A stretch of DNA of 64,000 bases from Eledone cirrhosa. Taxonomy: Eukaryota. Every line of letters starts with the position of its first letter. Position 1 is the first letter of the stretch. Where the stretch lies: positions 321,098,001-321,162,000 of the forward strand of contig OZ024743.1 of the NCBI GenBank assembly GCA_964016885.1, given 5' to 3'. The notes below the pieces were generated by a model. It did no database searches and was not told the origin of the DNA. It saw nothing but the letters and a program-made list of their open reading frames with translations. This document shows positions 1 through 61,804 of the stretch, one piece after another. The translations under genes and the position numbers were made by a program.

Positions 1-3000
1 CAGGACTACATATCCAGTGCTTTTATCGAGAATGACACAGCTAGAGACTTATAGAATACTTAGCTGTGTACAGGAACTGGTTTGAAAGAGCGGTTGCCGG
101 TCCGGCAGAAATTAGAAATTGGAATAAATGCTCTGAAATAGCGATATATATGTGAATATAGACATAGAATATTCGAAAATATTCTGTATGTTTATAATAA
201 ACATTTTGAAGACCTAATCGCTATAGAATAGAATACGTCACGTATTACAATTAGATTCTCGATAAAAGCAAGGGAAGTAATCTACGCGTTTCATTCTTGT
301 TAGAAATCATCAGGACTACATATCCAGTGCTTTTATCGAGAATGACACAGCTAGAGACTTATAGAATACTTAGCTGTGTACAGGAACTGGTTTGAAAGAG
401 CGGTTGCCGGTCCGGCAGAAATTAGAAATTGGAATAAATGCTCTGAAATAGCGATATATATGTGAATATAGACATAGAATATTCGAAAATATTCTGTATG
501 TTTATAATAAACATTTTGAAGACCTAATCGCTATAGAATAGAATACGTCACGTATTACAATTAGATTCTCGATAAAAGCAAGGGAAGTAATCTACGCGTT
601 TCATTCTTGTTAGAAATCATCAGGACTACATATCCAGTGCTTTTATCGAGAATGACACAGCTAGAGACTTATAGAATACTTAGCTGTGTACAGGAACTGG
701 TTTGAAAGAGCGGTTGCCGGTCCGGCAGAAATTAGAAATTGGAATAAATGCTCTGAAATAGCGATATATATGTGAATATAGACATAGAATATTCGAAAAT
801 ATTCTGTATGTTTATAATAAACATTTTGAAGACCTAATCGCTATAGAATAGAATACGTCACGTATTACAATTAGATTCTCGATAAAAGCAAGGGAAGTAA
901 TCTACGCGTTTCATTCTTGTTAGAAATCATCAGGACTACATATCCAGTGCTTTTATCGAGAATGACACAGCTAGAGACTTATAGAATACTTAGCTGTGTA
1001 CAGGAACTGGTTTGAAAGAGCGGTTGCCGGTCCGGCAGAAATTAGAAATTGGAATATTTTCGAATATTCTATGTCTATATTCACATATATATCGCTATTT
1101 CAGAGCATTTATTCCAATTTCTAATTTCTGCCGGACCGGCAACCGCTCTTTCAAACCAGTTCCTGTACACAGCTAAGTATTCTATAAGTCTCTAGCTGTG
1201 TCATTCTCGATAAAAGCACTGGATATGTAGTCCTGATGATTTCTAACAAGAATGAAACGCGTAGATTACTTCCCTTGCTTTTATCGAGAATCTAATTGTA
1301 ATACGTGACGTATTCTATTCTATAGCGATTAGGTCTTCAAAATGTTTATTATAAACATACAGAATATTTTCGAATATTCTATGTCTATATTCACATATAT
1401 ATCGCTATTTCAGAGCATTTATTCCAATTTCTAATTTCTGCCGGACCGGCAACCGCTCTTTCAAACCAGTTCCTGTACACAGCTAAGTATTCTATAAGTC
1501 TCTAGCTGTGTCATTCTCGATAAAAGCACTGGATATGTAGTCCTGATGATTTCTAACAAGAATGAAACGCGTAGATTACTTCCCTTGCTTTTATCGAGAA
1601 TCTAATTGTAATACGTGACGTATTCTATTCTATAGCGATTAGGTCTTCAAAATGTTTATTATAAACATACAGAATATTTTCGAATATTCTATGTCTATAT
1701 TCACATATATATCGCTATTTCAGAGCATTTATTCCAATTTCTAATTTCTGCCGGACCGGCAACCGCTCTTTCAAACCAGTTCCTGTACACAGCTAAGTAT
1801 TCTATAAGTCTCTAGCTGTGTCATTCTCGATAAAAGCACTGGATATGTAGTCCTGATGATTTCTAACAAGAATGAAACGCGTAGATTACTTCCCTTGCTT
1901 TTATCGAGAATCTAATTGTAATACGTGACGTATTCTATTCTATAGCGATTAGGTCTTCAAAATGTTTATTATAAACATACAGAATATTTTCGAATATTCT
2001 ATGTCTATATTCACATATATATCGCTATTTCAGAGCATTTATTCCAATTTCTAATTTCTGCCGGACCGGCAACCGCTCTTTCAAACCAGTTCCTGTACAC
2101 AGCTAAGTATTCTATAAGTCTCTAGCTGTGTCATTCTCGATAAAAGCACTGGATATGTAGTCCTGATGATTTCTAACAAGAATGAAACGCGTAGATTACT
2201 TCCCTTGCTTTTATCGAGAATCTAATTGTAATACGTGACGTATTCTATTCTATAGCGATTAGGTCTTCAAAATGTTTATTATAAACATACAGAATATTTT
2301 CGAATATTCTATGTCTATATTCACATATATATCGCTATTTCAGAGCATTTATTCCAATTTCTAATTTCTGCCGGACCGGCAACCGCTCTTTCAAACCAGT
2401 TCCTGTACACAGCTAAGTATTCTATAAGTCTCTAGCTGTGTCATTCTCGATAAAAGCACTGGATATGTAGTCCTGATGATTTCTAACAAGAATGAAACGC
2501 GTAGATTACTTCCCTTGCTTTTATCGAGAATCTAATTGTAATACGTGACGTATTCTATTCTATAGCGATTAGGTCTTCAAAATGTTTATTATAAACATAC
2601 AGAATATTTTCGAATATTCTATGTCTATATTCACATATATATCGCTATTTCAGAGCATTTATTCCAATTTCTAATTTCTGCCGGACCGGCAACCGCTCTT
2701 TCAAACCAGTTCCTGTACACAGCTAAGTATTCTATAAGTCTCTAGCTGTGTCATTCTCGATAAAAGCACTGGATATGTAGTCCTGATGATTTCTAACAAG
2801 AATGAAACGCGTAGATTACTTCCCTTGCTTTTATCGAGAATCTAATTGTAATACGTGACGTATTCTATTCTATAGCGATTAGGTCTTCAAAATGTTTATT
2901 ATAAACATACAGAATATTTTCGAATATTCTATGTCTATATTCACATATATATCGCTATTTCAGAGCATTTATTCCAATTTCTAATTTCTGCCGGACCGGC

Positions 3001-4491
3001 AACCGCTCTTTCAAACCAGTTCCTGTACACAGCTAAGTATTCTATAAGTCTCTAGCTGTGTCATTCTCGATAAAAGCACTGGATATGTAGTCCTGATGAT
3101 TTCTAACAAGAATGAAACGCGTAGATTACTTCCCTTGCTTTTATCGAGAATCTAATTGTAATACGTGACGTATTCTATTCTATAGCGATTAGGTCTTCAA
3201 AATGTTTATTATAAACATACAGAATATTTTCGAATATTCTATGTCTATATTCACATATATATCGCTATTTCAGAGCATTTATTCCAATTTCTAATTTCTG
3301 CCGGACCGGCAACCGCTCTTTCAAACCAGTTCCTGTACACAGCTAAGTATTCTATAAGTCTCTAGCTGTGTCATTCTCGATAAAAGCACTGGATATGTAG
3401 TCCTGATGATTTCTAACAAGAATGAAACGCGTAGATTACTTCCCTTGCTTTTATCGAGAATCTAATTGTAATACGTGACGTATTCTATTCTATAGCGATT
3501 AGGTCTTCAAAATGTTTATTATAAACATACAGAATATTTTCGAATATTCTATGTCTATATTCACATATATATCGCTATTTCAGAGCATTTATTCCAATTT
3601 CTAATTTCTGCCGGACCGGCAACCGCTCTTTCAAACCAGTTCCTGTACACAGCTAAGTATTCTATAAGTCTCTAGCTGTGTCATTCTCGATAAAAGCACT
3701 GGATATGTAGTCCTGATGATTTCTAACAAGAATGAAACGCGTAGATTACTTCCCTTGCTTTTATCGAGAATCTAATTGTAATACGTGACGTATTCTATTC
3801 TATAGCGATTAGGTCTTCAAAATGTTTATTATAAACATACAGAATATTTTCGAATATTCTATGTCTATATTCACATATATATCGCTATTTCAGAGCATTT
3901 ATTCCAATTTCTAATTTCTGCCGTACCGGCAACCGCTCTTTCAAACCAGTTCCTGTACACAGCTAAGTATTCTATAAGTCTCTAGCTGTGTCATTCTCGA
4001 TAAAAGCACTGGATATGTAGTCCTGATGATTTCTAACAAGAATGAAACGCGTAGATTACTTCCCTTGCTTTTATCGAGAATCTAATTGTAATACGTGACG
4101 TATTCTATTCTATAGCGATTAGGTCTTCAAAATGTTTATTATAAACATACAGAATATTTTCGAATATTCTATGTCTATATTCACATATATATCGCTATTT
4201 CAGAGCATTTATTCCAATTTCTAATTTCTGCCGGACCGGCAACCGCTCTTTCAAACCAGTTCCTGTACACAGCTAAGTATTCTATAAGTCTCTAGCTGTG
4301 TCATTCTCGATAAAAGCACTGGATATGTAGTCCTGATGATTTCTAACAAGAATGAAACGCGTAGATTACTTCCCTTGCTTTTATCGAGAATCTAATTGTA
4401 ATACGTGACGTATTCTATTCTATAGCGATTAGGTCTTCAAAATGTTTATTATAAACATACAGAATATTTTCGAATATTCTATGTCTATATT

Positions 4492-4495
<4 letters not shown>
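1..4495. repeat. Tandem array of a 310-bp non-coding monomer (family A), one minimal hammerhead per unit; inversion at ~1054; retrozyme-like
   Basis: Exact 310-bp period (caggactaca at 1, 311, 621, 931). Orientation flips at shared 'gaata' 1052-1056. About 11 further units run to 4495, then (TA)n. Units are near-identical. Confidence 0.95.
1227..1269 (+). ncRNA. Minimal type I hammerhead ribozyme, family A (repeats every 310 bp to 4327-4369; minus-strand copies 277-319, 587-629, 897-939)
   Basis: gtagtc-CTGATGA-t-ttct-aaca-agaa-t-GAAAC-gc-GTA-gattac. Stem I gtagtc/gattac, stem II ttct/agaa, palindromic stem III acgcgt. Confidence 0.88.
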
Positions 4496-4552
<57 letters not shown>

Positions 4553-4774: not shown

Positions 4775-5097
4775 AATGAAAAATTTGAACAGGGACAGAA
4801 GAGAGAGTCAGTACAATAAATGTTTATTAAATTCACGCTCAGGAGAGTGGGGGGTAGGTGGGGGACGACGTTTCGGGCATAAGCCCTTCCTCAGGTGAGA
4901 AGTGTGTGGGAACAGAGTTCAAAAGGTGTGTAGGGGAGTGGTGGAGAGACATATAGCGAAAGGAAACGGTGCGAATGAAAAATTAACAAATAAAGACAAA
5001 AAATATAAAAAATAAAAATAAAGCATGATCAAAATACAAGGAATGAGAAAATTTAAAAATAAAGGCATGATCAAAATAAACTGAAATTAAAAGGGGT
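4775..5097 (-). mobile_element. Solo PLE pseudo-LTR fragment with hammerhead core at ~4864-4897
   Basis: Minus strand reads CTGAGGA-agggc-ttat-gccc-GAAACGTC, then AATAAA, then (TA)n. Stem I is weak. Confidence 0.6.
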
Positions 5098-8650: not shown

Positions 8651-9680
8651 GTTGTCTCACTTGAGTGTGTGTGAGTATGTGTGTGTGCGTGTGTTGTTGC
8701 CTTGTTCCTCTATATTGGCAGTGTAGTATGTTCGTATGGTGGAATGCTACTGTGTGTGTGTGCGTGTGCGTATGTAGTTGTCTCGTTTGTGGGTTTGTGT
8801 GCGTGTGTTGCTGCATCGTTGTTAACTTAAACAAGCCACCCCATTTCGCTTCTCTCGGATCGATTGTTTATTTTCGGTCCCAGGCGTTTGATAAAAAGCG
8901 TTTCCTTGATACGTAACGTGCCGACGTTTCTTTCAGTCGCTAGAATTGTGACAATGGGCCTTCCATCTTTGTTTCCGCATTTGTCTATGTGTTTCCGGAA
9001 AGACGAGGCCCTAGTTTTAGTGTGTTCCTTGATCCGGACGTGCAAAGGTCGGATTGTGCTACCTATATAGTATTGGTTGCACCTGTCACATTCTATCTTA
9101 TACACGACGTATGTGCGTAGGCAACAGTTCGCATGGCGTATCGGGCAATCTCTGAGGGAGCACGCGTCAGTAGATTCCCCGGGTTTCCTGGAGAGGCATG
9201 TTCGCAGGGAGGGGCCCGAGTGAGTCAGGTGGATGTCGAGGCCCTCCTTCCGTATAGCCTTGCTGATAGCGTTGGTGGTATTCTCTCCCAGGTGTGGCAT
9301 TTTAAGGAAGCACTTGCCTTGGGTGCCTCTCTGTCTCTTGTGTCTGGCGTCTCCCACTCTGTCTGTGAGCGAGGTGGGGTACCCGTTCGTCTCCATCACC
9401 TCGAGGAATCGCTTGGTATGAGTGACACCACTCGCGGGATCGCTGCATCTGTTTTTGATTCGCGCGATCTCGTTCGTGATGTATCCTCTTTTGGCACTGT
9501 TAAGGAGGGCGGACTTGTAGTGAACGAACAGGTCCCTGCAGGCGGCCTTTCGGTTGAAGTTGCAGTGGATCCTTCCCTGTTCCGTGATGTTGATTCGGAA
9601 GTCGAGGAGGGCAAGTGACCCGTCTTCGTTGGGGGTGTTCAACACTGACGTCAATGTTCTCGTCCGTGTTGTTGAACGTG
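8480..9680 (-). mobile_element. 5'-truncated PLE of a different clade (CCHH-type GIY-YIG; Penelope/Poseidon-like); ORF 8827-9654
   Basis: LALLDFRI..HYKS thumb region; VVYKIECDRCNQYYIGSTIRPLHVRIKEH..RKH..KETLFIKRLGPKIN. (CA)n-rich 3' UTR. Confidence 0.88.
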
Positions 9681-10995
9681 GGGCTGTAATACAGGAAAGT
9701 TTTATGCAATTTATGTTTACAAGCCAAAATTGCCTCAGATTTTTTGTTTAAGATGTGGTCTGTGGCGTATAATATTTCCAGGGCCTCAGCGGCGCAGAGG
9801 TCACATGGTCTTTTATTTCCATTATACGATCTAGCCATAGCTAGGATCTCCCATGTGACCTCTGCGCCGCTGAGGCCCTGGAAATAATCTACGCCACAGA
9901 CCACATCTTAAACAAAAAATCTGAGGCAATTTCGGCTTGTAAACATAAATTGCACAAAACCTTCATGTATTACAGCCCCACGTTATACCCTAACGGATAG
10001 TACGGTCTATACGTGGATATTTTACGTCTTGATGTGGGAGCTAAGTATATGTTTTGTTTATACCATTACTTATTTGCATAGTTAAGTATATATTACCCGT
10101 ATGTTTTGTGAAGGGACGTATACCTTCTCGTACGTATATTTGATTGTTTATGTTATGGCGTATAATTTTATATATTCTGGTACATATGGTTTGGCTATGT
10201 GTATACGGGAGTTTTGCGTCTGTGTGAGTATGCAGGTTCGTACGTATGTTGGGTGTGTGTATATGTGTACTTCATGTTTTGGTTGACTTACGTCTCCGAA
10301 CATTCGTGTATTTAAATGAAGGTATGTGTGGCACTTGTTATATACGTATTTATTTATATACGTTTATATAATTATTTATTTATTTGTATACACGCATACA
10401 CACACACACATATTTATATGTGCGTGGTTTTGTATAGGTAACTGTTTTGCGTATGCTTGTGTATGTACGTATTTGTTTGCGTGTATGTATTTATTTATTT
10501 CTATTACTTCTGTATTGTATTTATTTACTTTGTTCTTAACTCTGTAGCGGAGTTTCATTCGGTCTCCTAGTTAGAATTTTAGTCTACGACTTCTGCTATA
10601 CCGTTTACGTGGTTTCGTCTTTGCGTGCTATTGTTCTCCACGCTCCACATATGACGTATTATCTTCATTTTGTTCATTCATTGCCAGAGAACGTCTCTAT
10701 GAACCACCTAAGAGAACATTAGTCTACGACCTCTTTTCTAAATTAAACGTGGTTCTGTCTTTGCGCGTAATTGTTTTTCACCGCTCCTATTTATGACGTA
10801 TATTTTCGTTTTTTCCCGTTCTTTGCCAGCGAACGTTTCCACGAACCAAATATCGTCTTCCTGTCTTCCTCCGGTTGCAACGTTTTTTGAAATATCCACT
10901 TCTGCGTTTACAGATTGACTTTGTTAGTTTCAGAAGATCCCGTTAAGGGTGAAAGCAGCGATTCTTTGCTTAAACTTTAATCTGTTATTTTAGTA
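9676..10995 (+). mobile_element. Severely 5'-truncated Hydra-like PLE with inverted arm (9676-9860) and ~1-kb 3' UTR ending in a hammerhead
   Basis: EN C-terminus WEIL..PCDLCAAE..LNKKSE..CKH on both strands. Inversion at ccatgtgacc 9851-9860. Ends in (TA)n. Confidence 0.8.
10926..10976 (+). ncRNA. Hammerhead-like ribozyme with variant core CAGAAGA
   Basis: agttt-CAGAAGA-tccc-gttaa-gggt-GAAA-gca(gcgattctt)tgc-TT-aaact. Same motif at 46441-46491. Confidence 0.7.
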
Positions 10996-11648: not shown

Positions 11649-13975
11649 ACAATTAAGTTAAAAATGTACATCCACATATGTATACTGAAATACTAGTATG
11701 CATATGAATACACACACGTGTACATATGTAGATGTACCGAGTTTTTCACTGGACACTTTACTGTGAGTGTCCAGCTATTCTGTATGTAAACACACAGACA
11801 AACCGGTTTTTAGAGTCATACTGGTTTTCGAGGAAACACCTTTCCTCTATTCTCCAGAAAGCCAGACAAGGAATATAGGACTAGTTTCGATGTTGTTACA
11901 TCTCATCAGCAATAATAACCTATCTTCCGGCCTTTCTAGAGAATCGTAAAAGCACATATCGTTATATGCTTTTTCTATGAAAATTAGTAGTGGGCAGACT
12001 AATTTGCATAGAGCGTGAGTACGTACCGGTTCAGCGGAGACGATAAAAACAAATAACGAAACGAAATTAAATTTCGTTTCGTTTGTAACTCACTTTTGTA
12101 TGACTGACGCTTAAACAATTAAGTTAAAAATGTACATCCACATATGTATACTGAAATACTAGTATGCATATGAATACACGCACGTGTACATATGTAGATG
12201 TACCGAGTTTTTAACTGGACACTTTACTGTGAGTGTCCAGCTATTCTGTATGTAAACACACAGACAAACCGGTTTTTAGAGTCATACTGGTTTTCGAGGA
12301 AACACCTTTCCTCTATTCTCCAGAAAGCCAGACAAGGAATATAGGACTAGTTTCGATGTTGTTACATCTCATCAGCAATAATAACCTATCTTCCGGCCTT
12401 TCTAGAGAATCGTAAAAGCACATATCGTTATATGCTTTTTCTATGAAAATTAGTAGTGGGCAGACTAATTTGCATAGAGCGTGAGTACGTACCGGTTCAG
12501 CGGAGACAATAAAAACAAATAACGAAACGAAATTAAATTTCGTTTCGTTTGTAACTCACATTTGTATGACTGACGCTTAAACAATTAAGTTAAAAATGTA
12601 CATCCACATATGTATACTGAAATACTAGTGTGTATATGAATACACACACGTGTACATATGTAGATGTACCGGGTTTTTCACTGGACACTTTACTGTGAGT
12701 GTCCAGCTATTCTGTATGTAAACACACAGACAAACCGGATTTTAGAGTCATACTGGTTTTCGAGGAAACACCTTTCCTCTATTCTCCAGAAAGCCAGACA
12801 AGGAATATTGGACTAGTTTCGATGTTGTTCCATCTCATCAGCAATATTTACCTATCTTCCGGCCTTTCTAGAGAATCGTAAAAGCACATATCGTTATATG
12901 TACACGTGTGTGTATTCATATGCATACTAGTATTTCAGTATACATATGTGGATGTACATTTTTAACTTAATTGTTTAAGCGTCAGTCATACAAAAGTGAG
13001 TTACAAACGAAACGAAATTTAATTTCGTTTCGTTATTTGTTTTTATCGTCTCCGCTGAACCGGTACGTACTCACGCTCTATGCAAATTAGTCTGCCCACT
13101 ACTAATTTTCATAGAAAAAGTATATAACGATATGTGCTTTTACGATTCTCTAGAAAGGCCGGAAGATAGGTAAATATTGCTGATGAGATGTAATAACATC
13201 GAAACTAGTCCAATATTCCTTGTCTGGCTTTCTGGAGAATAGAGGAAAGGTGTTTCCTCGAAAACCAGTATGACTCTAAAAACCGGTTTGTCTGTGTGTT
13301 TACATACAGAATAGCTGGACACTCACAGAAAAGTGTCCAGTGAAAAACTCGGTACATCTACATATGTACACGTGTGTGTATTCATATGCATACTAGTATT
13401 TCAGTATACATATGTGGATGTACATTTTTAACTTAATTGTTTAAGCGTCAGTCATACAAAAGTGAGTTACAAACGAAACGAAATTTAATTTCGTTTCGTT
13501 ATTTGTTTTTATCGTCTCCGCTGAACAGGTACGTACTCACGCTCTATGCAAATTAGTCTGCCCACTACTAATTTTCATAGAAAAAGCATATAACGATATG
13601 TGCTTTTACGATTCTCTAGAAAGGCCAGAAGATAGGTAAATATTGCTGATGAGATGTAACAACATTGAAACTAGTCCAATATTCCTTGTCTGCCTTTCTG
13701 GAGAATAGAGGAAAGGTGTTTCCTCGAAAACCAGTATGACTCTAAAAACCGGTTTGTCTGTGTGTTTACATACAGAATAGTTGGACACTCACAGTAAAGT
13801 GTCCAGTGAAAAACTCGGTACATCTACATATGTACACGTGTGTGTATTCATATGCATACTAGTATTTCAGTATACATATGTGGATGTACATTTTTAACTT
13901 AATTGTTTAAGCGTCAGTCATACAAAAGTGAGTTACAAACGAAACGAAATTTAATTTCGTTTCGTTATTTGTTTC
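11649..13975. repeat. Tandem array of a 466-bp non-coding monomer (family B) with a hammerhead per unit; inversion at ~12898; retrozyme-like
   Basis: 466-bp period (repeated 60-aa ORFs at 11767, 12233, 12699, then on the minus strand). About 2.7 + 2.3 units, flanked by (TA)n. Confidence 0.93.
13173..13217 (+). ncRNA. Minimal hammerhead ribozyme, family B (also 13639-13683; minus copies ~11872, 12338, 12804)
   Basis: aatattg-CTGATGA-gatgt-aata-acatc-GAAAC-ta-GTC-caatatt; palindromic actagt stem III. Confidence 0.92.
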
Positions 13976-13987
13976 ATATATAGATAA

Positions 13988-14402: not shown

Positions 14403-14453
<51 letters not shown>

Positions 14454-14454
14454 G

Positions 14455-14538
14455 TGAAGATAGACATAGAATATTCGAAAATATTCTGTATGTATATAAT
14501 AAACATTTTGAAGACCTAATCGCTATAGAATAGAATAC
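14455..14538 (-). repeat. ~85-bp fragment of the family A monomer inside (TA)n
   Basis: Matches 153-238, ending at the same internal TATAT site as the arrays. Confidence 0.85.
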
Positions 14539-14752
14539 GTATATATATATACGTATAAATATATATACGTATATATATATATATATATATACGTATAAAT
14601 ATATATACGTATATATATATATATATACATACGTATTTATATATATATATATATATATACGTATATATATATATATATATACGTATATATATATATATAC
14701 GTATATATATATATATATATATATGTATACGTATAAATATTTATATATATAC

Positions 14753-17689: not shown

Positions 17690-19620
17690 TATTGTTATAC
17701 TTGGGGAGGGTCATATTTGCGTAATATTGCCAGAATTAATAACAGAACACACTCACTGTTTGGTTGGTTTTCGCTTCTCGCTGTCTTTTATATCTGCGAT
17801 CTAACTTACTCGGTCCTCAATGTTGCCATTGACTGACCGACGGTCAAAAATAATACTGATACAATATAGACACAAACACATATATATAGTTTACATAATT
17901 TACATAAATCTTTTGTTGCACATCTGCAACATCGTCAGTGGTGTTATATTTTTTTCCTCCTGTTGTGTTGTATGTCTACGCCATTTTTTTATTCAGTCTG
18001 TCTATATATTTATTTATTTATTTGCTTGTTTGTTTATTTTATTTTGTCTTCTTTGCGCAGGCGTTTGCGTATGTGTATAGTGTTATGTGTGCTGTGTGAC
18101 TAGTGTGTATAGTGTTGTGTCTGCTGGGTGACTAGTGTGTGTGTATGTGCTTGTGTATGTATTTATTTATCTTATTTTATTTTATTTTATTTACTTATTT
18201 ATACTTCTCTTAGGTCAGTGTTGTTTGTTTGGGTGTTGTTGTTGTTCCACTCATTCTTTCTGTTTAGCTTTGGTCTTCTAATTTCTATTTCACTGGGCTC
18301 TCTGATTTGCCTATCTGCTGGGTCATTCCTATGTTTAGATATTATTCTAATTTCTATGTTGTCTATGTTACCGTCATGTTGTTGTCTAGCATGTTCGTAT
18401 AGTACTGACCCGTTTTTTCGTCCTTTTAGTTCCCCCCGGTGTTGGTCTATCCTTTCACCTATGCTACGAGCTGTCTCACCTATGTATGTTGTTGTCATGT
18501 TTCTGCAAGTACCCTCTGTACATCTTATGCTATAGACTACGTTTCTAGTTTTACAGTTTATCCGGGGGTTCACCTTACATATGATACATTTCCTATTGGT
18601 ACAGTGGGTTTTCTTAAAAGGGTAGGTTTTGCTGATCAGGGATTTTATGGTGGTTCCTGGCTTTTCTACCACCTTTATTTTTAAGTGGGTCTTTCTCAGG
18701 GCCTTTCTACACTGGTTAGCTAATATCCCTCCAGGCGTGGCGTCCACAAACATGACACTCTGATATCTCTGGTTGTCGTACCATGATGTGGCCTTCCCTA
18801 TCTTATGTCTAGCCCTATCTAAGCTATTCCATGATTTGCTCCTGTATAGTGGGCAAATTCCTTTCATGTCCAGTTCTATGAGGGTCTTATACTTTTCCAT
18901 GGCTCCTTCGTATACTCTGACTCTGTCTCTTTGGTTGTAGCCAGAGAACTGCATGCGGTTGATGAAGTGTTGGATGTGTCTTTCCATTTCTGTTTGGTCG
19001 CACATGCTGGACACATTCTTCATCACTCGTACCAAATCTGCGATCAGAATATTAAACTTAGCACTACTGGACATTGCTGAGTTTTTGAGTATCAGGTATT
19101 TGGAGGCCAGGGTTTAGCATAGTGTGAGTGGAGAATTTGGGCTCTCTCGTCTATAGTGTTAATCCAGAGTTCTGTGTCTAATACAGGTAGTCTATTGTTA
19201 GGGTGTTTGGAAGGGAAGTCGATAGTTACAGTTATACTCTGGTGTATGGAATTAGCTATCTGCTGGATGCTTTCCATCGTGCTACGTTCTAAATCAAACT
19301 TGTTAGTGCTCTCTAGTGGGGGTGTTCTTATAATTATATTGATAGAGTACATGATGAGGTCTATGGAGCTTTCATTAAGGAGATCTTTAAGTCTCCTTTC
19401 CCACCATACCATTAAAAGGTTGGCAACATCACCAGCTATGCTGACGCCGATGGCTGCTCCCTCATTTTGGGTGTAGATTTTCTCATTGAACTTAAATATG
19501 TGGCCCTTCTGTTATTAATTCTGGCAATATTACGCAAATATGACCCTGCCCAAGTATAACAATATCTGTTTCGACACACGATTTCATATAAAAAACCTCG
19601 CTAAACTAATTCATCGCCGC
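17690..19620 (-). mobile_element. 5'-truncated EN+ PLE (CCHH GIY-YIG) with inverted terminal copy at 19507-19620
   Basis: ORFs 19092-19412 and 18199-19074: EGAAIGVSIAGDVANL, LPVLD, VVYSIRC..YIGETARSIGERIDQH. The catalytic YxDD appears deleted. Decayed HHR near 17905-17945. Confidence 0.88.
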
Positions 19621-19704
19621 TATATATATATACATATATATATATATATGTTCATCTCTAACGTAACGATATATTATCACTACATTATTGATAACCTGAA
19701 ATTT

Positions 19705-19740
<36 letters not shown>

Positions 19741-19741
19741 C

Positions 19742-19772
<31 letters not shown>

Positions 19773-19787
19773 CTTATATATATATAT

Positions 19788-22377
19788 ATGTGGCCTGAGT
19801 GCCACCTCCTCTCTGGAATGACGTCAATAGAACAGAGACAGACGGAATCCCTGCTGGCCCTCACACACAGGCTGTTCATGGAGCAAGCAATACTCCTCCC
19901 AACAAGAGGCGAAAATGTCCTGGACCTCTGTTTTCCAAACCACGAAGTGCTCATCCACAATGTAAAGGTGACACCAACAATTCTCTCGGATCATAACTTA
20001 GTAGAGCTAATGATATGTGGTCCAAGAGAACCAACAGAGACAAAACCACCAAGAAGCTCCGGGACGCTATCCAACCTTAACTTCTACAAGGCTAACTGGA
20101 AAAAGATTAAGAGTGAAATCCGGAAGCAAACATGGAGTGAAAACACCGCCACACAAGACACTAACACACAATTTCAACACTTCATGACAACGATACACAC
20201 CATATGCAAAAAGTGTGTCCCGGAGAAAGAGGCAAACAGACACAACAATCTTATTCCCAGAGATAGGAAAATCCTTATGAGACGTAGAACTAAACTCTCA
20301 AATCAGTTGAATAGTCAACAAAACAAAAACAAGAAGGAATCCTATTTGAAACGTGCACTACTTGACACCGAGATTGCACTCAAACTTTCACATGAGAATG
20401 AGAGGGCAAAGAAAGAGAACAGGGCCATAGAAAACATTAAAACAAACCCTAAGGCCTTCTTTAAATTTGCAAAAGAAACTGCCTCAGTACACTGCAAGAT
20501 CGGACCACTCTTCCACACGGACGGTTCATTAATCGAAAATCCCCAAGAGATATGTGAAATACTGAACGAACAGTACAAAAGTGTCTTCACATGTCCACTG
20601 AGGCACATGCAAATAACGAAGCCAGAGGAGTTCTTTGATGCCACAACACTACATCAAGAAATGGCAATCATCAAACACATAGACATAACGGAGGAGGATG
20701 TGGTGTACGCCATTGATGAAATTAGAACAGACTCGGCTGCTGGACCTGATGGATTCCCAGCAGTTCTCCTAAAAATATGTAAGCGGGCCTTAGCAACTCC
20801 ACTGAAGATGCTCTTCAGAAGCTCCTTGGCTAGCGGTGTACTACCCAGGGAGCTGAAAGAAGGCACAATATGCCCTATCCATAAAGGGGGTAGTAGAGCG
20901 GAGGCCAAGAACTATAGGCCAGTCTCCCTGACGTCGCATATCAGTAAGGTCATGGAGCGAGTCGTCAGAAAGAAACTAATCACTTTCCTCGAAGAAAATG
21001 ACCGCCTGACGAGCACGCAACATGGCTTCCGCCCAGGAAGAAGCTGCCTTACACAGCTGCTACATCACTACGACTGGGTACTGAGACAACTACTAGACAG
21101 CTCACATGTGGACGTGATATATCTTGACTTTGCGAAGGCCTTTGACAAGGTCAACCACGGAATGATATGTCACAAACTACACGGACTCGGCATAACTGGC
21201 AAAGTAGGTGAGTGGCTGCATGGCTTCCCAAGGGACAGAAGCCAGGCAGTCGCAGCAAATGGGGCCCTCTCGAGGGAAACACCGATAACAAGTGGGGTGC
21301 CCCAGGGGACAGTCCTGGGACCACTACTGTTTTTGGTGGCTCTCTCGGACATGCCCTCTGTGGTGCATGCAACAACATCCCTCACTAGCTATGCTGATGA
21401 CACTAAGGTAGCACAGGAAATCAAGAACCCGGCTGACGCTGCCCTTTTACAGCAGGATCTGGATGCCATATACAGATGGGCGGAAGAAAACAACATGCAG
21501 TTTAATGCTGGCAAATTCCAAGCCCTACAATACAAACCTTCAAACACAAATATAGTGGAACACAGCTACACAGGACCAGGAGGGACCGATATCCCCGTGT
21601 CAAAATCGATACGAGACCTGGGCATAGACATGAGCGATGATGCATCTTTTTCTTCACACATCATGAAGGTGGCGACAACATGTAGACGATTCGCTGGCTG
21701 GATCTTGAGGACTTTCCTTACAAGAGATCGAGACACCATGTTGACACTGTGGAGGACTTTTGTCCTAAGCCGCCTGGACTACTGCTCCCAGCTGTGGTCA
21801 CCCCATAGTGACAAACTAACCACGGAGCTTGAGGCAATCCAGCGAAGCTACACCAAGAGGATTGCCAAGATGAGGGAGACAAGCTACTGGGAGAGGCTAA
21901 AGGAACTGAACCTCTACTCCTTGGAGCGAAGACGGGAATGATACGCAGTGATCTACATGTGGAAAATCCTGGAGGGACTAGCACCAAACTTTGGCACTGG
22001 GAGCTGGACCAACCGTCGAACAGGACGTCACTGTGTGGTGCCAAAGGTCCCGTCTTCCACATCTAGAAGAAGGAGCAGGTATTGCAATAGCCTGGGATTC
22101 AAGGGCCCTCAACTCTTCAACGGGCTGCCGAGGCATCTGAGAGACTAGCAGGACGTGGAGGTGGATGTCTTTAAGAAACATTTCGACATCTTGTTATCCA
22201 GAATCCCGGATGAGCCCACAGCAAGAGACGAGGGAAACCTAAGGGCAGCAGCAACAAACTCCCTCCTACACCAGTGGCCAACCTATACAGGCTGGAGATA
22301 AAATGTGTAGCAACAAGGGCGGTGCACCAGCATGGCCTCAGCCGGATGACTGAAACAGGTAAAAGAGTAAAAGAGTA
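19788..22377 (+). mobile_element. 5'-truncated non-LTR LINE, CR1/L2-group (APE C-terminus + RT), young copy
   Basis: 717-aa open frame with SDHNLV, YRPVSLTS, QHGFR, YLDFAKAFDKV, GVPQGTVLGPLLF, YADD; one TGA at 21939. 3' tail tgactgaaacaggt(aaaagagt)2. Confidence 0.92.
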
Positions 22378-24436
<2,059 letters not shown>

Positions 24437-24443
<7 letters not shown>

Positions 24444-24895
24444 TAAAAAAATAATGAATAAAACAATGAAACAGTTCCTTATATTAAACAAAAAAAGTTC
24501 ATTATTTAACGATCGTTTCTGGGATATATATGTGTTAGAATTGGCATGTATATTTAACAGATCTATGTACAAAATTATACAAAATTATACAAACTATCAA
24601 AATTAAATATACATACCAACTCATATATATGCCGAAGACGGCAATATACATGTCAATTCTAACACATATATATCCCAGAAACGATCGTTAAATAATGAAC
24701 TTTTTTTGTTTAATATAAGGAACTGTTTCATTGTTTTATTCATTATTTTTTTAATATTTTATCTTGACTCTGTATTCCGTTTATCTTTCACCGAAAGTGA
24801 TTTTTCATTGCATCTCTTCCTTCCATGATATCCGGATTACATTGAGTTCTTCATACGGATTGGACACTACCGTAAACTCTTGGTAGATTTATCTA
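24437..24895. mobile_element. Solo family D pseudo-LTR, inverted inside the hammerhead stem II
   Basis: Both arms match 40190-40525. Flip at ~24633. Confidence 0.85.
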
Positions 24896-24896
24896 C

Positions 24897-25001
<105 letters not shown>

Positions 25002-25152
25002 CATACATATATATATATACATATATACATATATATATATACATATATACATATATATATATACATATATATATATACATATATATATATACATATATAT
25101 ATATACATATATATATATACATATATACATATATATATATACATATATATAT

Positions 25153-26762
25153 ATTGGAATAAATGCTCTGAAATAGCGATATATATGTGAATATAGACAT
25201 AGAATATTCGAAAATATTCTGTATGTTTATAATAAACATTTTGAAGACCTAATCGCTATAGAATAGAATACGTCACGTATTACAATTAGATTCTCGATAA
25301 AAGCAAGGGAAGTAATCTACGCGTTTCATTCTCGTTAGAAATCATCAGGACTACATATCCAGTGCTTTTATCGAGAATGACACAGCTAGAGACTTATAGA
25401 ATACTTAGCTGTGTACAGGAACTGGTTTGAAAGAGCGGTTGCCGGTCCGGCAGAAATTAGAAATTGGAATAAATGCTCTGAAATAGCGATATATATGTGA
25501 ATATAGACATAGAATATTCGAAAATATTCTGTATGTTTATAATAAACATTTTGAAGACCTAATCGCTATAGATTACGGCAACCGCTCTTTCAAACCAGTT
25601 CCTGTACACAGCTAAGTATTCTATAAGTCTCTAGCTGTGTCATTCTCGATAAAAGCACTGGATATGTAGTCCTGATGATTTCTAACGAGAATGAAACGCG
25701 TAGATTACTTCCCTTGCTTTTATCGAGAATCTAATTGTAATACGTGACGTATTCTATTCTATAGCGATTAGGTCTTCAAAATGTTTATTATAAACATACA
25801 GAATATTTTCGAATATTCTATGTCTATATTCACATATATATCGCTATTTCAGAGCATTTATTCCAATTTCTAATTTCTGCCGGACCGGCAACCGCTCTTT
25901 CAAACCAGTTCCTGTACACAGCTAAGTATTCTATAAGTCTCTAGCTGTGTCATTCTCGATAAAAGCACTGGATATGTAGTCCTGATGATTTCTAACGAGA
26001 ATGAAACGCGTAGATTACTTCCCTTGCTTTTATCGAGAATCTAATTGTAATACGTGACGTATTCTATTCTATAGCGATTAGGTCTTCAAAATGTTTATTA
26101 TAAACATACAGAATATTTTCGAATATTCTATGTCTATATTCACATATATATCGCTATTTCAGAGCATTTATTCCAATTTCTAATTTCTGCCGGACCGGCA
26201 ACCGCTCTTTCAAACCAGTTCCTGTACACAGCTAAGTATTCTATAAGTCTCTAGCTGTGTCATTCTCGATAAAAGCACTGGATATGTAGTCCTGATGATT
26301 TCTAACGAGAATGAAACGCGTAGATTACTTCCCTTGCTTTTATCGAGAATATAATTGTAATACGTGACGTATTCTATTCTATAGCGATTAGGTCTTCAAA
26401 ATGTTTATTATAAACATACAGAATATTTTCGAATATTCTATGTCTATATTCACATATATATCGCTATTTCAGAGCATTTATTCCAATTTCTAATTTCTGC
26501 CGGACCGGCAACCGCTCTTTCAAACCAGTTCCTGTACACAGCTAAGTATTCTATAAGTCTCTAGCTGTGTCATTCTCGATAAAAGCACTGGATATGTAGT
26601 CCTGATGATTTCTAACGAGAATGAAACGCGTAGATTACTTCCCTTGCTTTTATCGAGAATCTAATTGTAATACGTGACGTATTCTATTCTATAGCGATTA
26701 GGTCTTCAAAATGTTTATTATAAACATACAGAATATTTTCGAATATTCTATGTCTATATTCA
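25153..26762. repeat. Second family A 310-bp hammerhead array, inversion at ~25573
   Basis: HHRs at 25312-25354 (-) and 25666, 25976, 26286, 26596 (+). All units carry the loop variant aacg. Confidence 0.95.
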
Positions 26763-27152
26763 TATATATATATACATATATATATATACATATATACATA
26801 TATATATATACATATATATATATACATATATATATATACATATATATATAAACATATATATATATACATATACATATATATACATATATATATATATACA
26901 TATACATATACATATATATATACATATACATATATATATGTATATACATATACATATATATATATATACATATATATATATACATACATACATATACATA
27001 TATACATATACATATATATACATATATACATATATATATATATATACATATATATACATATACATATATACATATACATATATATACATATATACATATA
27101 CATATATATACATATATACATATATATACATATATATATATATATATACATA

Positions 27153-28065
27153 CCTGGTCTTTCTACTATCTTAATATTAAGATTGTAGAAAGACCAGGTA
27201 CCTCTGTAAAAACACTTATTAGCAAGACATACCCTTTTCAAAGACCCTCATGTATAGATAAGAAATGTGTAACCTGTAAAATAAGCCCCCATATTAACTG
27301 TAAAACTAGAAATGTAGTGTATAGCATAAGATGTACTTAAGGACAATGTAGAGACAAAAATATAGTGTACATAGGTGAGACAGCTCCTAGTGTAGGGGAA
27401 CGGATAAATGAACACTGGCGAGACCTTCAAGAATCATCTGTACTCTACCAACATGCTAAGATAGAACACAAGGGTAAATTAGAGAACATAAAAATAAAAA
27501 TAGAATCTACACACAGAAAAGACGCAATGTTTAGACAAATTACTGAGGCAATAAACATAAAAGAATTACAACCAAAATTAAATAGAAAATATGAGTGGAA
27601 CAGCAACATCACAACTTACAATTAAGGACAAACTGAAAACACACACACACATAGAACAAACAACCAACCATGTAAATAAACAAATAGATAAATGAACATA
27701 AACACACACAGACACCCGGATGTGGCGCATGCGCAGATTGAGCACACAACACACACACAGAAACAAAATGGCGTAGGACAGAACAAAGGAGAGGCACAGA
27801 AACAAAGAGAGGAATCCCCAGTCACTGAAGAGGTCACAGAGTGTGTGACGAAAGAACTATGACTATATATAAACAACTATCTGGTTGTGGAACCAACCAA
27901 TCAACCAGAAATATATAAATTTATAAATTTGTAAATTTATAAATATATAATAAATTGAAGTGAGAGCAACTGGTGCGTGTGTTTCTTATTGGCAACATAA
28001 CCCTCACAAAGTATAACAATATCGGTTTCAACACACGATTTCAGATAAAGAATCTTGCTAAACAA

Positions 28066-28646: not shown

Positions 28647-28681
<35 letters not shown>

Positions 28682-29479
28682 AAATATTAAAAAAATAATG
28701 AATAAAACAATGAAACAGTTCCTTATATTAAACAAAAAAAGTTCATTATTTAACGATCGTTTCTAGGATATATATGTGTTAGAATTGGCATGCATATTCA
28801 ACAGATCTATGTACAAAATTATACAAAATTATACAAACTATCAAAATTAAATATACATACCAACACATATATATGCCGTCTTCAGAAATAATGAAATATA
28901 TTTATTGATAATAACACAATTCAAAATTACAGGTCTGTTTGGGAACAGAATTCAAATTGACCAATGAAAATACAAAAAGTTTATACAATTAAGTGTGTGT
29001 ATATATGTAATTAACTTCGTTCACAGATATGCATAAAGATGTATGTTCACATGCATACGCATGCCAAAAAGATGTATGTAAATACAAAAATTCAAGGCTA
29101 ATGTCTCTGTATGTTTATAATCTACAGATAAAATACGTATAAAAACAAATATACACACACATTTTTATATACTCATACATATACGTACATTCACACACAC
29201 ACGCGCGTATACGCATAAACATACACACAACCACGAACATACATACACACACACACCCCCACGCACATATATATGTGTGTATATACTATTATCATAAGCA
29301 TATGGACATTAATGCGCGCACATAAACACTGCCACACATATTTAGATCCAGATACAGAAAGTAGGTGGGCGGGGGGGGAGAGGTCAGTATTTAGCGGTGT
29401 TAGCAAGCTGCCTATTTATAAATGTATCTATAAATTTAGAAATAAAAAGAAAAGAAAAATAAAAAAGAAATATATCAAG

Positions 29480-38019: not shown

Positions 38020-38050
<31 letters not shown>

Positions 38051-38388
38051 GTAGATAAATCTACCAAGAGTTTACGGTAGTGTCCAATCCGTATGAAGAA
38101 CTCAATGTATTCCGGATATCATGGAAAGAAGAGATGCAATGAAAAACGACTTTCGGTGAAAGATAAACGGTATACAGAGTCAAGATAAAATATTATTTCT
38201 GAAGACGGCGTATATATGTGTTTGGTATGTATATTTAATCTTGATAATTTGTATAATTTTGTATAATTTTGTACATAGATCTGTTGAATATGCATACCAA
38301 TTATAACACATATATATCCTAGAAACGATCGTTAAATAATGAACTTTTTTTGTTTAATATAAGGAATTGTTTGTTCATTATTTGTTTA

Positions 38389-38397
<9 letters not shown>
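38051..38397. mobile_element. Solo family D pseudo-LTR with complete hammerhead (38192-38340) and inverted tail
   Basis: 38051-38194 is the reverse complement of ~40382-40525. Absent from the left arm at ~34950. Confidence 0.85.
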
Positions 38398-40174: not shown

Positions 40175-40328
40175 TTCATTATTTCTGAAGACGGCATATA
40201 TATGTGTTGGTATGTATATTTAATTTTGATAGTTTGTATAATTTTGTATAATTTTGTGCATAGATCTGTTGAATATGCATGCCAATTCTAACACATATAT
40301 ATCCTAGAAACGATCGTTAAATAATGAA
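40175..40328 (+). ncRNA. Hammerhead ribozyme, family D, with ~115-nt stem II (minus copy 28742-28895)
   Basis: ttcattattt-CTGAAGA-[115 nt]-GAAAC-gatc-GTT-aaataatgaa; 10-bp stem I. Confidence 0.85.
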
Positions 40329-40521
40329 CTTTTTTTGTTCAATATAAGGAACTGTTTCATTGTTTTATTAATTATTTTTTAATATTTTATCTTGACTCTG
40401 TATTCCGTTTATCTTTCACCGAAAGTGATATTTCATTGCATCTCTTCTTTCCATGATATCCGGATTACATTGAGTTCTTCATACGGATTGGACACTACCG
40501 TAAACTCTTGGTAGATTTATC

Positions 40522-43340
<2,819 letters not shown>

Positions 43341-43359: not shown

Positions 43360-43408
43360 GATTCTACAGGACTAGAATTGTTTCATTCTTTAGAAATCAT
43401 CAGGAATC
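43360..43408 (-). ncRNA. Isolated hammerhead related to family A in a ~70-bp insert
   Basis: gattc-CTGATGA-t-ttct-aa-agaa-t-GAAAC-aattctagtcct-GTA-gaatc. Confidence 0.72.
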
Positions 43409-60079: not shown

Positions 60080-61804
60080 TGAAGGTAGCCATAACGTTTG
60101 AAGGCCTTCAAAGACTGGTGTACATCAAGGTGTGTGTAGAGAGAGGAGGTTGTGTGGATTATTTCCTCATGATCAAGGTATGCAAGTAAAATATAAATGA
60201 GAACAAAACTAGGAGCCTGGCCTGGATGTTTGTAACAGAGTGAACTCTTCTAAAGAAACCCGAAAATCTGAATGTGTGTGGTAGTGGTGTTGGTGGTGGT
60301 GGTAAGACAGGGGGAGTATGTGTGACCAATAACCTCATGACCAATGAAAAAAGAATGATGGCACCAGCAATGGGAGGATGTTAGAGGTATAATATTGATG
60401 ATTATTGCCCTTCAGGCTATAACAGAGGAGTTCAAGACCGGCTGCCCATGGGAACTTCTCTATGCAGATGATCTAACGCTCATAGCTGAATCGATGGCTG
60501 AACTAGAGAAGAAATTCCAAACATGGAAGCATGGCCTAGAATCAAAAGGCCTTAAAGTTAACTTGTCTAAGACTAAAGTTCTAGTATGTAGGAAGGAAAA
60601 TAGGACACAGGTTCCCTCTGGGATATGGCCATGCTCAGTATGTAGGAAAGGAGTAGGCAGAAATTTCATGTTATGTCCCAAATGCAAAGTATGGGTGCAT
60701 AAAAGATGTAGTGGGATCACAGGTAATCTAACTAAGAATATAGATTTTATATGTGGCCGGTGCTCTGGTGCAATAAGTAGCAGCAAGTGCCCACAGGATA
60801 CTAGCTCCTTCCATTGCACAGATGGCTCTATAGAAATAGTGTACACCTTCCATTACCTGGGTGACAAAATCAGCAGTGGTGGAGGGTGCTCCTAAAGTAC
60901 AGTAGCCAGAGTCAGAACGGGATGGAAAAAGTTCAGAGAGCTTATACCACTATTGGCCGCTAAAGGTTTCTCTCTAAAAATGAAAGACAGACTGTATGAT
61001 GCCTGCATACGAACAGCAATGTTACATGGCAGTGAGACTTGGGCATTGTGTGCAGAGGACCTGCGCAGACTGGAGAGGAACGAAGCTTGCATGCTCCGTT
61101 GGATGTGTAATAGTAATATACGTGAACGGCAAAAACATAAACGAACTAAGTGAGAAATTAGGAATAAGAGGGATCAGATGCTGTTTACTCAAGAGAAGAC
61201 TACGTTGGTATGGTCACGTGATGTGCATGAAAAACGACAGCTGTATAAAAAAAGTGCAGGGCGATCAAAATTGACGGAAGTTACGGAGTAGGCAGACCCA
61301 GAAAAACCTGGGACGATTTGATAAACTCCGACCTCACACACTTACACTCTCTAAGACAATGTCACTGGACCGAGATCTTTGGCGCTACGCAGTAATACAG
61401 AAAACCGCCTTACCTAAGTACAAGCGAAACCTACAGTCAGTAGACACCTCTTAATCAAATACCCCCCCCCCCCCCACTACCCCCACACCCCATCAACACC
61501 ACCCGTTTCTATGTAAAGTTATGTTGGTGCCACAACATCCAGTCCTAAATAAATGAGGTTGTGTAGGCGTCACGACAAAAACATACAGTCCACGCTGTAA
61601 TGTGACCGTGTAGGTAACACTGTAAAAACCTCCCAGTCCACACTGTAAACGTAGTTGGTGTTAGAAAGAGCATCCAGCCGTAGAAAACCTGCCAGACAGT
61701 CCCATACGAGCGAGACGACCAATCTTGCCTCAAGGGGACAATTCCCGTCTAAACCCATGCTAGCGTGGAAGATAGACGTTAAACGATGATGATGATGATG
61801 ATGA
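60080..61804 (+). mobile_element. 5'-truncated RTE-clade LINE with a Cys-rich insert in RT and a (GAT)n tail
   Basis: GVHQG near 60120, LLYADDL, CSVCRKG..CPKCKVWVHKRCSG, FHYLG, RLRWYGHV, GRPRKTW. Interrupted at ~60130-60395. Confidence 0.88.

Follow-up and report, generated by a model that had tools for sequence, protein, structure and literature searches.

Two tandem arrays of the same 310-bp repeat lie 21 kb apart in a 64,000-nucleotide stretch of the Eledone cirrhosa genome (GenBank assembly GCA_964016885.1, contig OZ024743.1, positions 321,098,001 to 321,162,000 of the forward strand; hereafter, the window), and each array is uniform at a ribozyme loop position at which the two arrays differ. 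The question raised by this locus is how an array of several units, arranged in both orientations, comes to carry a single haplotype. A first-pass annotation of the window had attributed the pattern to repeated copying of one RNA circle per insertion. Comparison of the arrays of this repeat family, denoted family A, leads us to conclude that each array probably is one retrozyme insertion, in which a Penelope-type reverse transcriptase would have gone repeatedly round one RNA molecule of monomer length, probably a circle, priming on each of the two cut strands at an (AT)n target.

The family A unit and the array sample

Family A has a period of 310 bp, with G+C at 107 of the 310 bases, and no stop-free frame of at least 110 amino acids within the arrays. 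A type I hammerhead was recognized by eye, against the hammerhead consensus, in all 19 units within the window, with the core, stem I, a stem II of 4 bp closed by a loop II of 4 nt, and a palindromic stem III that is very short; an Rfam search of the window yielded no match at the gathering score, and RNAfold applied to the unit recovered stem I and not stem II. Changes that mark lineages of the family cluster at tolerant ribozyme sites (monomer positions 2, 284 and 287, counted from the predicted cut site): they affect position 7 of the core and the base of stem II, or insert a single nucleotide next to the cut site. Genome-wide counts were obtained by pattern searches, with exact 35-mers for units and a junction pattern for array ends, and indicate a dispersed multi-copy family: at least 8,709 units were counted in the 3.0-Gb genome, along with 1,110 junctions of End A (one of the two array end types described below). 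The short stem III suggests that the transcript would be cleaved as a dimer, by analogy with the elements described in PMC7229834. Altogether, family A, whose unit length lies within the span of about 150-450 bp typical of the class, fits a metazoan retrozyme without long terminal repeats (non-LTR), as a new member of a known family.

The initial sample comprised the first 100 junctions on one contig (C1), nine arrays from the loop II match lists and the two window arrays (array 1 and array 2; Table 1), 111 arrays altogether; with a second set of 20 loci that hold chosen variants, the total reached 131 arrays. Variants were called from the assembly sequence against a natural monomer (window positions 26013-26322), with 30-45 nt masked at arm ends. 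Two duplicate arrays, a 94-bp fragment and clusters of three or more changes within 40 nt were left out, and the substitution spectrum additionally omits two arrays of a diverged subfamily (L147 and L152) and, for four variants that were searched genome-wide, their unfixed calls in the loci added on that basis.

One haplotype per array

Within the window, loop II is fixed in each array and differs between the two, as the first-pass annotation had noted: it reads AACG in all five hammerheads of array 2, on both arms, and AACA in all 14 in-window hammerheads of array 1 (16 of 16 when the part before the window is included). The predicted energy of the stem II hairpin is equal for both loops, in agreement with the claim that this single-nucleotide polymorphism (SNP) leaves the fold intact. 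It is not, however, specific to these arrays: AACG occurs in 4,211 units and AACA in 4,498 units genome-wide, and the first 100 matches listed for each loop 35-mer fall in 10 arrays each, with none in common. Because these are two common genome-wide lineages, the two window arrays alone prove little, and because two master lineages would equally give two uniform arrays, a wider test is needed. We regard the SNP as a tolerated lineage marker. AACG likely was derived from AACA once, given that the diverged subfamily has A and that A is also found in 42 of the 42 arrays with another lineage marker; the latter count does not support AACG as a recurrent edit.

The wider sample shows the same uniformity. 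Among the 128 arrays that contain the loop II site, 43 are all G, 85 are all non-G and none is mixed, and the arms are discordant in 0 of 95 arrays of the first set. Every variant that is fixed in one arm and testable in the other is fixed there too (163 of 163), including all 37 non-lineage variants, which come from 30 arrays. The 302 calls at sites covered at least four times show a U-shaped distribution, with 146 fixed, 143 single and 13 intermediate. Between arrays, diversity is substantial: 37 haplotypes were found among 104 arrays, 28 of these only once, and 21 arrays have a fixed variant that is absent from all others in the first sample.

The rare variants are particularly informative. 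For example, A216G has 26 matches genome-wide, fills 18 of the 18 units of one array (L108) and is fixed in no other; T137C (19 matches) is fixed in two arrays, which differ in background, and occurs in one unit only in three others. A88T (46 matches) is fixed in three arrays of the same background and in one array of the diverged subfamily, and is single in L145, possibly its source unit. A 2-bp deletion accounts for 77 matches in nine arrays on five contigs, all with a period of 308 bp; seven of the eight other arrays of this sub-lineage were fetched, all are fixed for the deletion, and five of the seven carry a further array-wide change. A new change that fills a whole array implies passage through a monomer-length template that is then reiterated. 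Thus, the proposal of one template per family A array is strongly supported by the rare array-wide variants and by the lack of mixed arrays, and by the comparison of diversity within and between the sampled arrays that the annotation had called for; the loop II SNP, on which the proposal was originally based, is insufficient by itself, and that the template was an RNA circle is what we infer from the evidence discussed below.

Homogenization by assembly or polishing is hardly credible as the source of this uniformity: about 0.15 one-unit variants per unit survive, in both window arrays as well, the arrays 21 kb apart differ cleanly, and the nine arrays on five contigs retain their 308-bp period. 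Neither is the strand-specific excess of A>G changes described below expected from polishing.

Two-armed insertions with two fixed ends

Two or more outward-pointing arms are present in 99 of the 111 arrays, and 98 of these 99 have one outer end of each of two types, End A (monomer position 130-139) and End B (165-172), so that the two outer ends are fixed, about 35 nt apart, whereas the inner ends are variable. (AT)n adjoins nearly all listed End B junctions; at End A, adjoining (AT)n was itself the basis of selection in 100 regions. Contigs from an independent sequencing run (X4) include (AT)n loose ends at both the End A and the End B positions. Median arm lengths are 1,024 and 1,274 bp, with more than 8.5 kb for the longest arm. 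The arm with End A is the longer one in 46 of 97 arrays, and on these grounds, together with the different types of the two ends, we reject a fold-back origin of one arm from the other.

The central junctions were sized with each array's own unit in 79 arrays, of which 51 are flush or overlapping and 28 gapped or unresolved; overlaps of at least 2 nt were found at 30 of the 51, compared to 18% in simulation (p = 8e-11). Two arrays have unusual centres. In L142 (approximately 3098-3371), 272 bp of unrelated, GC-richer DNA separate the arms, and in L036 (2231-2408), the centre junction is duplicated (129 + 43 bp), resulting in four arms.

Penelope-like elements are described as having an inverted 5'-truncated copy, a 30-40 bp tail and a bias toward (TA)n (PMC8557442), and a Penelope protein studied in purified form cuts AT-rich DNA and extends both of its strands, beginning at two neighboring internal sites, one on either side of the tail (PMC11167929). 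Given that the inverted arm, the fixed twin ends and the tail spacing are as in the Penelope work, the arrays look as if twin-primed by such an enzyme. In the proposed pathway, a source array would be transcribed, the ribozyme would cleave the transcript to monomers and a monomer would be ligated to a circle, which occasionally would undergo A-to-I editing by ADAR; twin priming at End A and End B on the cut strands of the (AT)n target would be followed by rolling-circle synthesis of complementary DNA (cDNA) from both strands, and the two cDNA ends would finally be joined, with the excess microhomology at the inner junctions.

Circular or linear template

If both arms came from one linear multimer, one-unit variants would be expected to recur, mirrored, in the other arm at an equal distance from its outer end; this was seen in only four of the 79 testable calls, which represent two variants. 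These two variants (in L066 and L075) lie, in each arm, within the pass nearest to the outer end, and are in favor of a scheme with few master arrays, in which a source array that is already uniform gives a linear read-through transcript and the enzyme copies this transcript a single time, starting at two sites. This scheme also accommodates loop haplotypes that are genome-wide lineages, and uncleaved RNA is the main substrate in vitro (PMC11167929). It cannot, however, place a new change in every unit, and is at odds with the diversity of haplotypes, with the fixation of A216G in one array only, with the nested array-wide changes in the 308-bp lineage and with the 75 of 79 one-unit calls that are unmirrored. 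We therefore disfavor read-through as the main route, for which it appears very improbable; it may be the source of a small minority of insertions.

A template of monomer origin that is not a circle is unlikely. The template could be one monomer RNA that is not covalently closed, on which the enzyme jumps from the 5' end back to the 3' end, with the two ends held together by stem I, or else a uniform multimer produced by RNA-to-RNA rolling replication of one circle; both would explain the homogeneity and the editing data (see below) equally well, and the two lineage insertions at monomer position 2, beside the cut site, count in favor of such a template. An enzyme that jumps a nick would be expected to leave scars or to stop at the cut site. 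In 1,020 passes over the predicted cut site, only two unfixed changes were detected, both in one array's duplicated block, and the inner ends are not enriched there, with 38 of 196 in the two bins that flank the site compared to 39 expected. The apparent excess of inner ends at the cut site itself (15 of 196) was discounted, being attributable to how BLAST places alignment edges. A dimer circle would yield strictly alternating units, a pattern that is absent in the 131 arrays. Fixed changes are depleted in the catalytic core (none of 34, compared to seven of 148 unfixed ones), but the difference is too small to count. A closed monomer circle appears to be the best fit to these observations, which are genomic and bear on the RNA indirectly.

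An excess of A-to-G changes

The array-wide changes differ from the unfixed ones in their spectrum. With the main lineage markers excluded, A>G on the ribozyme strand accounts for 13 of 33 array-wide changes compared to 12 of 148 unfixed changes (p = 3e-5); in the first sample alone, the counts are 8 of 24 and 11 of 130 (p = 0.003), and in the second set, five of the seven new fixed changes are A>G. The adenines affected are mostly in predicted stems, with a mean pairing of 0.88 compared to 0.61. A20G and A276G occur on four haplotype backgrounds each and were never found unfixed in approximately 1,170 units; among the 793 matches of A20G, the first 100 listed fall in 11 arrays, with no lone match.

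Editing of the template RNA by ADAR, with the edited base read as G on each lap, would be the simplest cause of this excess, judging from the sequence pattern. Selection for wobble pairs does not account for the excess: the ratio of wobble-forming A>G to C>T changes is 11 to 1 among the fixed changes and 6 to 14 among the unfixed ones. Recombination between haplotypes is a weaker rival explanation because no array is mixed at the A>G sites.

Irregular arrays and points against a single circular template

Several observations weigh against the circular-template scenario. No RNA of the family A element was seen, and there is no RNA run among the listed runs that match the monomer. The Penelope protein of the anole acted in vitro mainly on RNA that was uncleaved, and the ribozyme was dispensable (PMC11167929). 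The Penelope-like sequences met near both window arrays are fragments only, with no intact partner among them, and End A, one of the two fixed ends, was the selection criterion for 100 of the sampled regions. Furthermore, 17 variants recur unfixed, in nine of the 131 arrays, when 0.56 identical pairs are expected, which implies that some other process also acts in some arrays. Partial variants are present in six of 28 units of L070 (a linked pair) and in seven of 23 units of L150. Mixed haplotypes, which the annotation had named as the observation to look for against a single template, are found at none of the family A lineage sites and once in the neighboring family B: a two-armed hammerhead array of this family (466-bp unit, 11650-13978) carries two haplotypes, such that three A>T changes mark the outer left units and neither the inner left unit nor the right arm. 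The one-template rule, then, is not absolute across families; the mixture in family B suggests a template switch, two templates or conversion.

The irregular arrays count in favor of growth of arrays at the DNA level, through insertion of a single unit followed by unequal crossing-over or gene conversion, or through rolling-circle copying of an excised DNA circle; a local amplification route has been raised in bioRxiv 10.64898/2026.07.22.740005. In particular, L141 contains an apparent 7-unit duplication, and partial variants are scattered in L070, L142, L047, L150 and L164. Against such growth, which we consider quite improbable, intermediate frequencies are limited to the 13 calls noted above, the opposite-strand arms agree at every fixed variant, the two ends are fixed and of different types, and the fixed changes show a strand-specific A>G excess that the unfixed changes lack. 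L047 and L150, moreover, each contain every combination of the alleles at two sites (18 nt apart in L047 and 13 nt in L150), which is awkward for conversion tracts; altered bases of a single template, misread at random, could have given rise to these patterns. Copying of one monomer-length RNA remains our preferred reading.

A further extension of the circular-template scenario, possible although we hold it tentatively, is that every array is a single-molecule concatemer record of one circular RNA, on which two Penelope enzymes would travel one behind the other; the array-wide changes would then be the state of the RNA, including ADAR edits, made heritable, and the scattered partial variants would be modified or damaged bases that were misread at random on each lap. 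If this is the case, the genome holds over a thousand single-molecule read-outs of germline circular RNA editing and of reverse transcriptase fidelity. Rolling-circle reverse transcription of retrozyme circles has been modelled since at least 2020 (PMC7229834); the family A arrays supply a test of this model that is tied to the two-start-site, both-strand chemistry shown for the Penelope protein (PMC11167929). Such a mechanism would explain how hammerhead 'satellites' arise at full length instead of growing in place, and suggests a route for RNA edits into germline DNA. With an RNA of only 310 nt and two known start sites, it is open to direct reconstitution.

Other features of the window and relatives of family A

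The features of the two arrays are listed in Table 1. Apart from the loop II difference, unit identity in the window arrays is 99.4-100%.

Table 1. Family A features in the window (positions counted from the first nucleotide of the window)
Feature	Position	Strand	Remarks
Array 1, haplotype AACA	1-4502	both	left arm 1-1056 (-), which starts at End B, 504 bp upstream of the window; right arm 1052-4502 (+), outer end = End A; 5-base centre overlap
One-unit change in array 1	3924		
Family A fragment, 94 bp	14447-14540	-	ends at End A within (AT)n
(AT)n target, left flank of array 2	24897-25154		
Array 2, haplotype AACG: insertion with two arms built of 310-bp family A retrozyme units	25153-26762	both	
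Array 2 left arm, ~1.4 units	25153-25572	-	outer end = End B, at monomer position 165 (numbering starts at the predicted cut site)
Type I hammerhead motif	25312-25354	-	loop II AACG 25333-25336
Array 2 centre junction	25573-25575		3 bases matching neither arm
Array 2 right arm, ~3.8 units	25576-26762	+	outer end = End A (monomer position 130-139, merging into (AT)n)
Type I hammerhead motif	25666-25708	+	loop II AACG 25684-25687; predicted cut after 25702
Type I hammerhead motif	25976-26018	+	loop II AACG 25994-25997; predicted cut after 26012
Cut-to-cut monomer, 310 nt, reference unit	26013-26322	+	predicted structured RNA, z -3.45 for 26014-26323
Type I hammerhead motif	26286-26328	+	loop II AACG 26304-26307; predicted cut after 26322
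One-unit C>A change in array 2	26351	+	units not fully collapsed
Type I hammerhead motif	26596-26638	+	loop II AACG 26614-26617; predicted cut after 26632
(AT)n target, right flank of array 2	26762-27152		

A degenerate short match to the family A hammerhead core is located at 43380-43405. The Penelope-like fragments of the window are at 27151-28065, 18233-18681, 8827-9744 and 4860-4900; among these, one has a GIY-YIG match (8827-9744), and one has a 50-bp fold-back at its 5' end together with a hammerhead-like motif at 27825; another hammerhead-like motif is present at 4894 (minus strand). Open frames with reverse transcriptase matches were found at 19695-21941 and 60359-60895, the latter also matching a PHD finger. 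A family of palindromic repeats that resemble miniature inverted-repeat transposable elements lies between (AT)n tracts (24439-24900, 28679-28878, 38047-38397 and 40192-40528).

Beyond the window, L147 and L152 represent the diverged subfamily, which is set apart by approximately 12 fixed differences and by an insertion of 2 nt, and has the A loop and the usual two-armed layout. Older family A relatives, with 71-80% identity to the unit and some of them tandem, were detected in L039, L065, L120, L139 and other loci. L050 and L088 each contain two separate family A arrays, 1-3 kb apart, with differing haplotypes. The monomer is also present in 20 sequencing runs from 17 studies with 18 organism labels, and in four runs of an examined set (X1, X2, X3, X10, X16 and X20), it forms one 340-nt monomer contig with 0-1 differences, at low depth; either traces of this highly abundant sequence were carried over, or the monomer is more widely distributed.

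Comparison with known systems

In twin priming by L1, as in the scheme proposed for family A, two target strands prime on one RNA, and the resulting inversion is joined by microhomology. Family A differs in having two start sites at fixed internal positions, no poly(A) and arms that both span several template lengths.

Metazoan non-LTR retrozymes, as far as the available text of the respective papers describes them, are similar to family A: their tandem units are non-coding, low in GC and about 300 bp long, and every unit contains a type I hammerhead. Conversion of the circular RNA to tandem cDNA, probably via a Penelope-like element, has been put forward as a proposal (PMC7229834, PMC7761336, bioRxiv 10.64898/2026.07.22.740005). 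The rolling step is hypothetical in the available text of the retrozyme papers, where the two-armed inversion, the fixed twin ends, the haplotype test and the A>G signature were not met; in that of PMC7229834, the word 'inverted' occurs 0 times. Neither a within-array haplotype test nor a direct or population-genomic test of the rolling step was found in the literature searched, the scope of which did not include subscription journals and supplements. The retrozyme class itself is known, and what appears new with respect to this literature is the insertion layout and the evidence on mechanism.

Penelope-like elements, to the extent covered by the available text, share with family A the inverted arm, the two fixed ends about 35 nt apart, the AT-rich or microsatellite target and the hammerhead. 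Unlike these elements, family A has no open reading frame, and its arms consist of up to 27 or more near-identical short units; the in vitro work on the Penelope protein, in which the ribozyme was dispensable, was, in its available text, not on circles (PMC11167929).

The same logic that we apply to the arrays is used in vitro by Roll-Seq, in the part of PMC11331410 available: a change in all repeats is assigned to the RNA template, and a change in one repeat to the reverse transcriptase. Roll-Seq is a laboratory method applied to engineered circles, whereas the family A arrays are genomic insertions.
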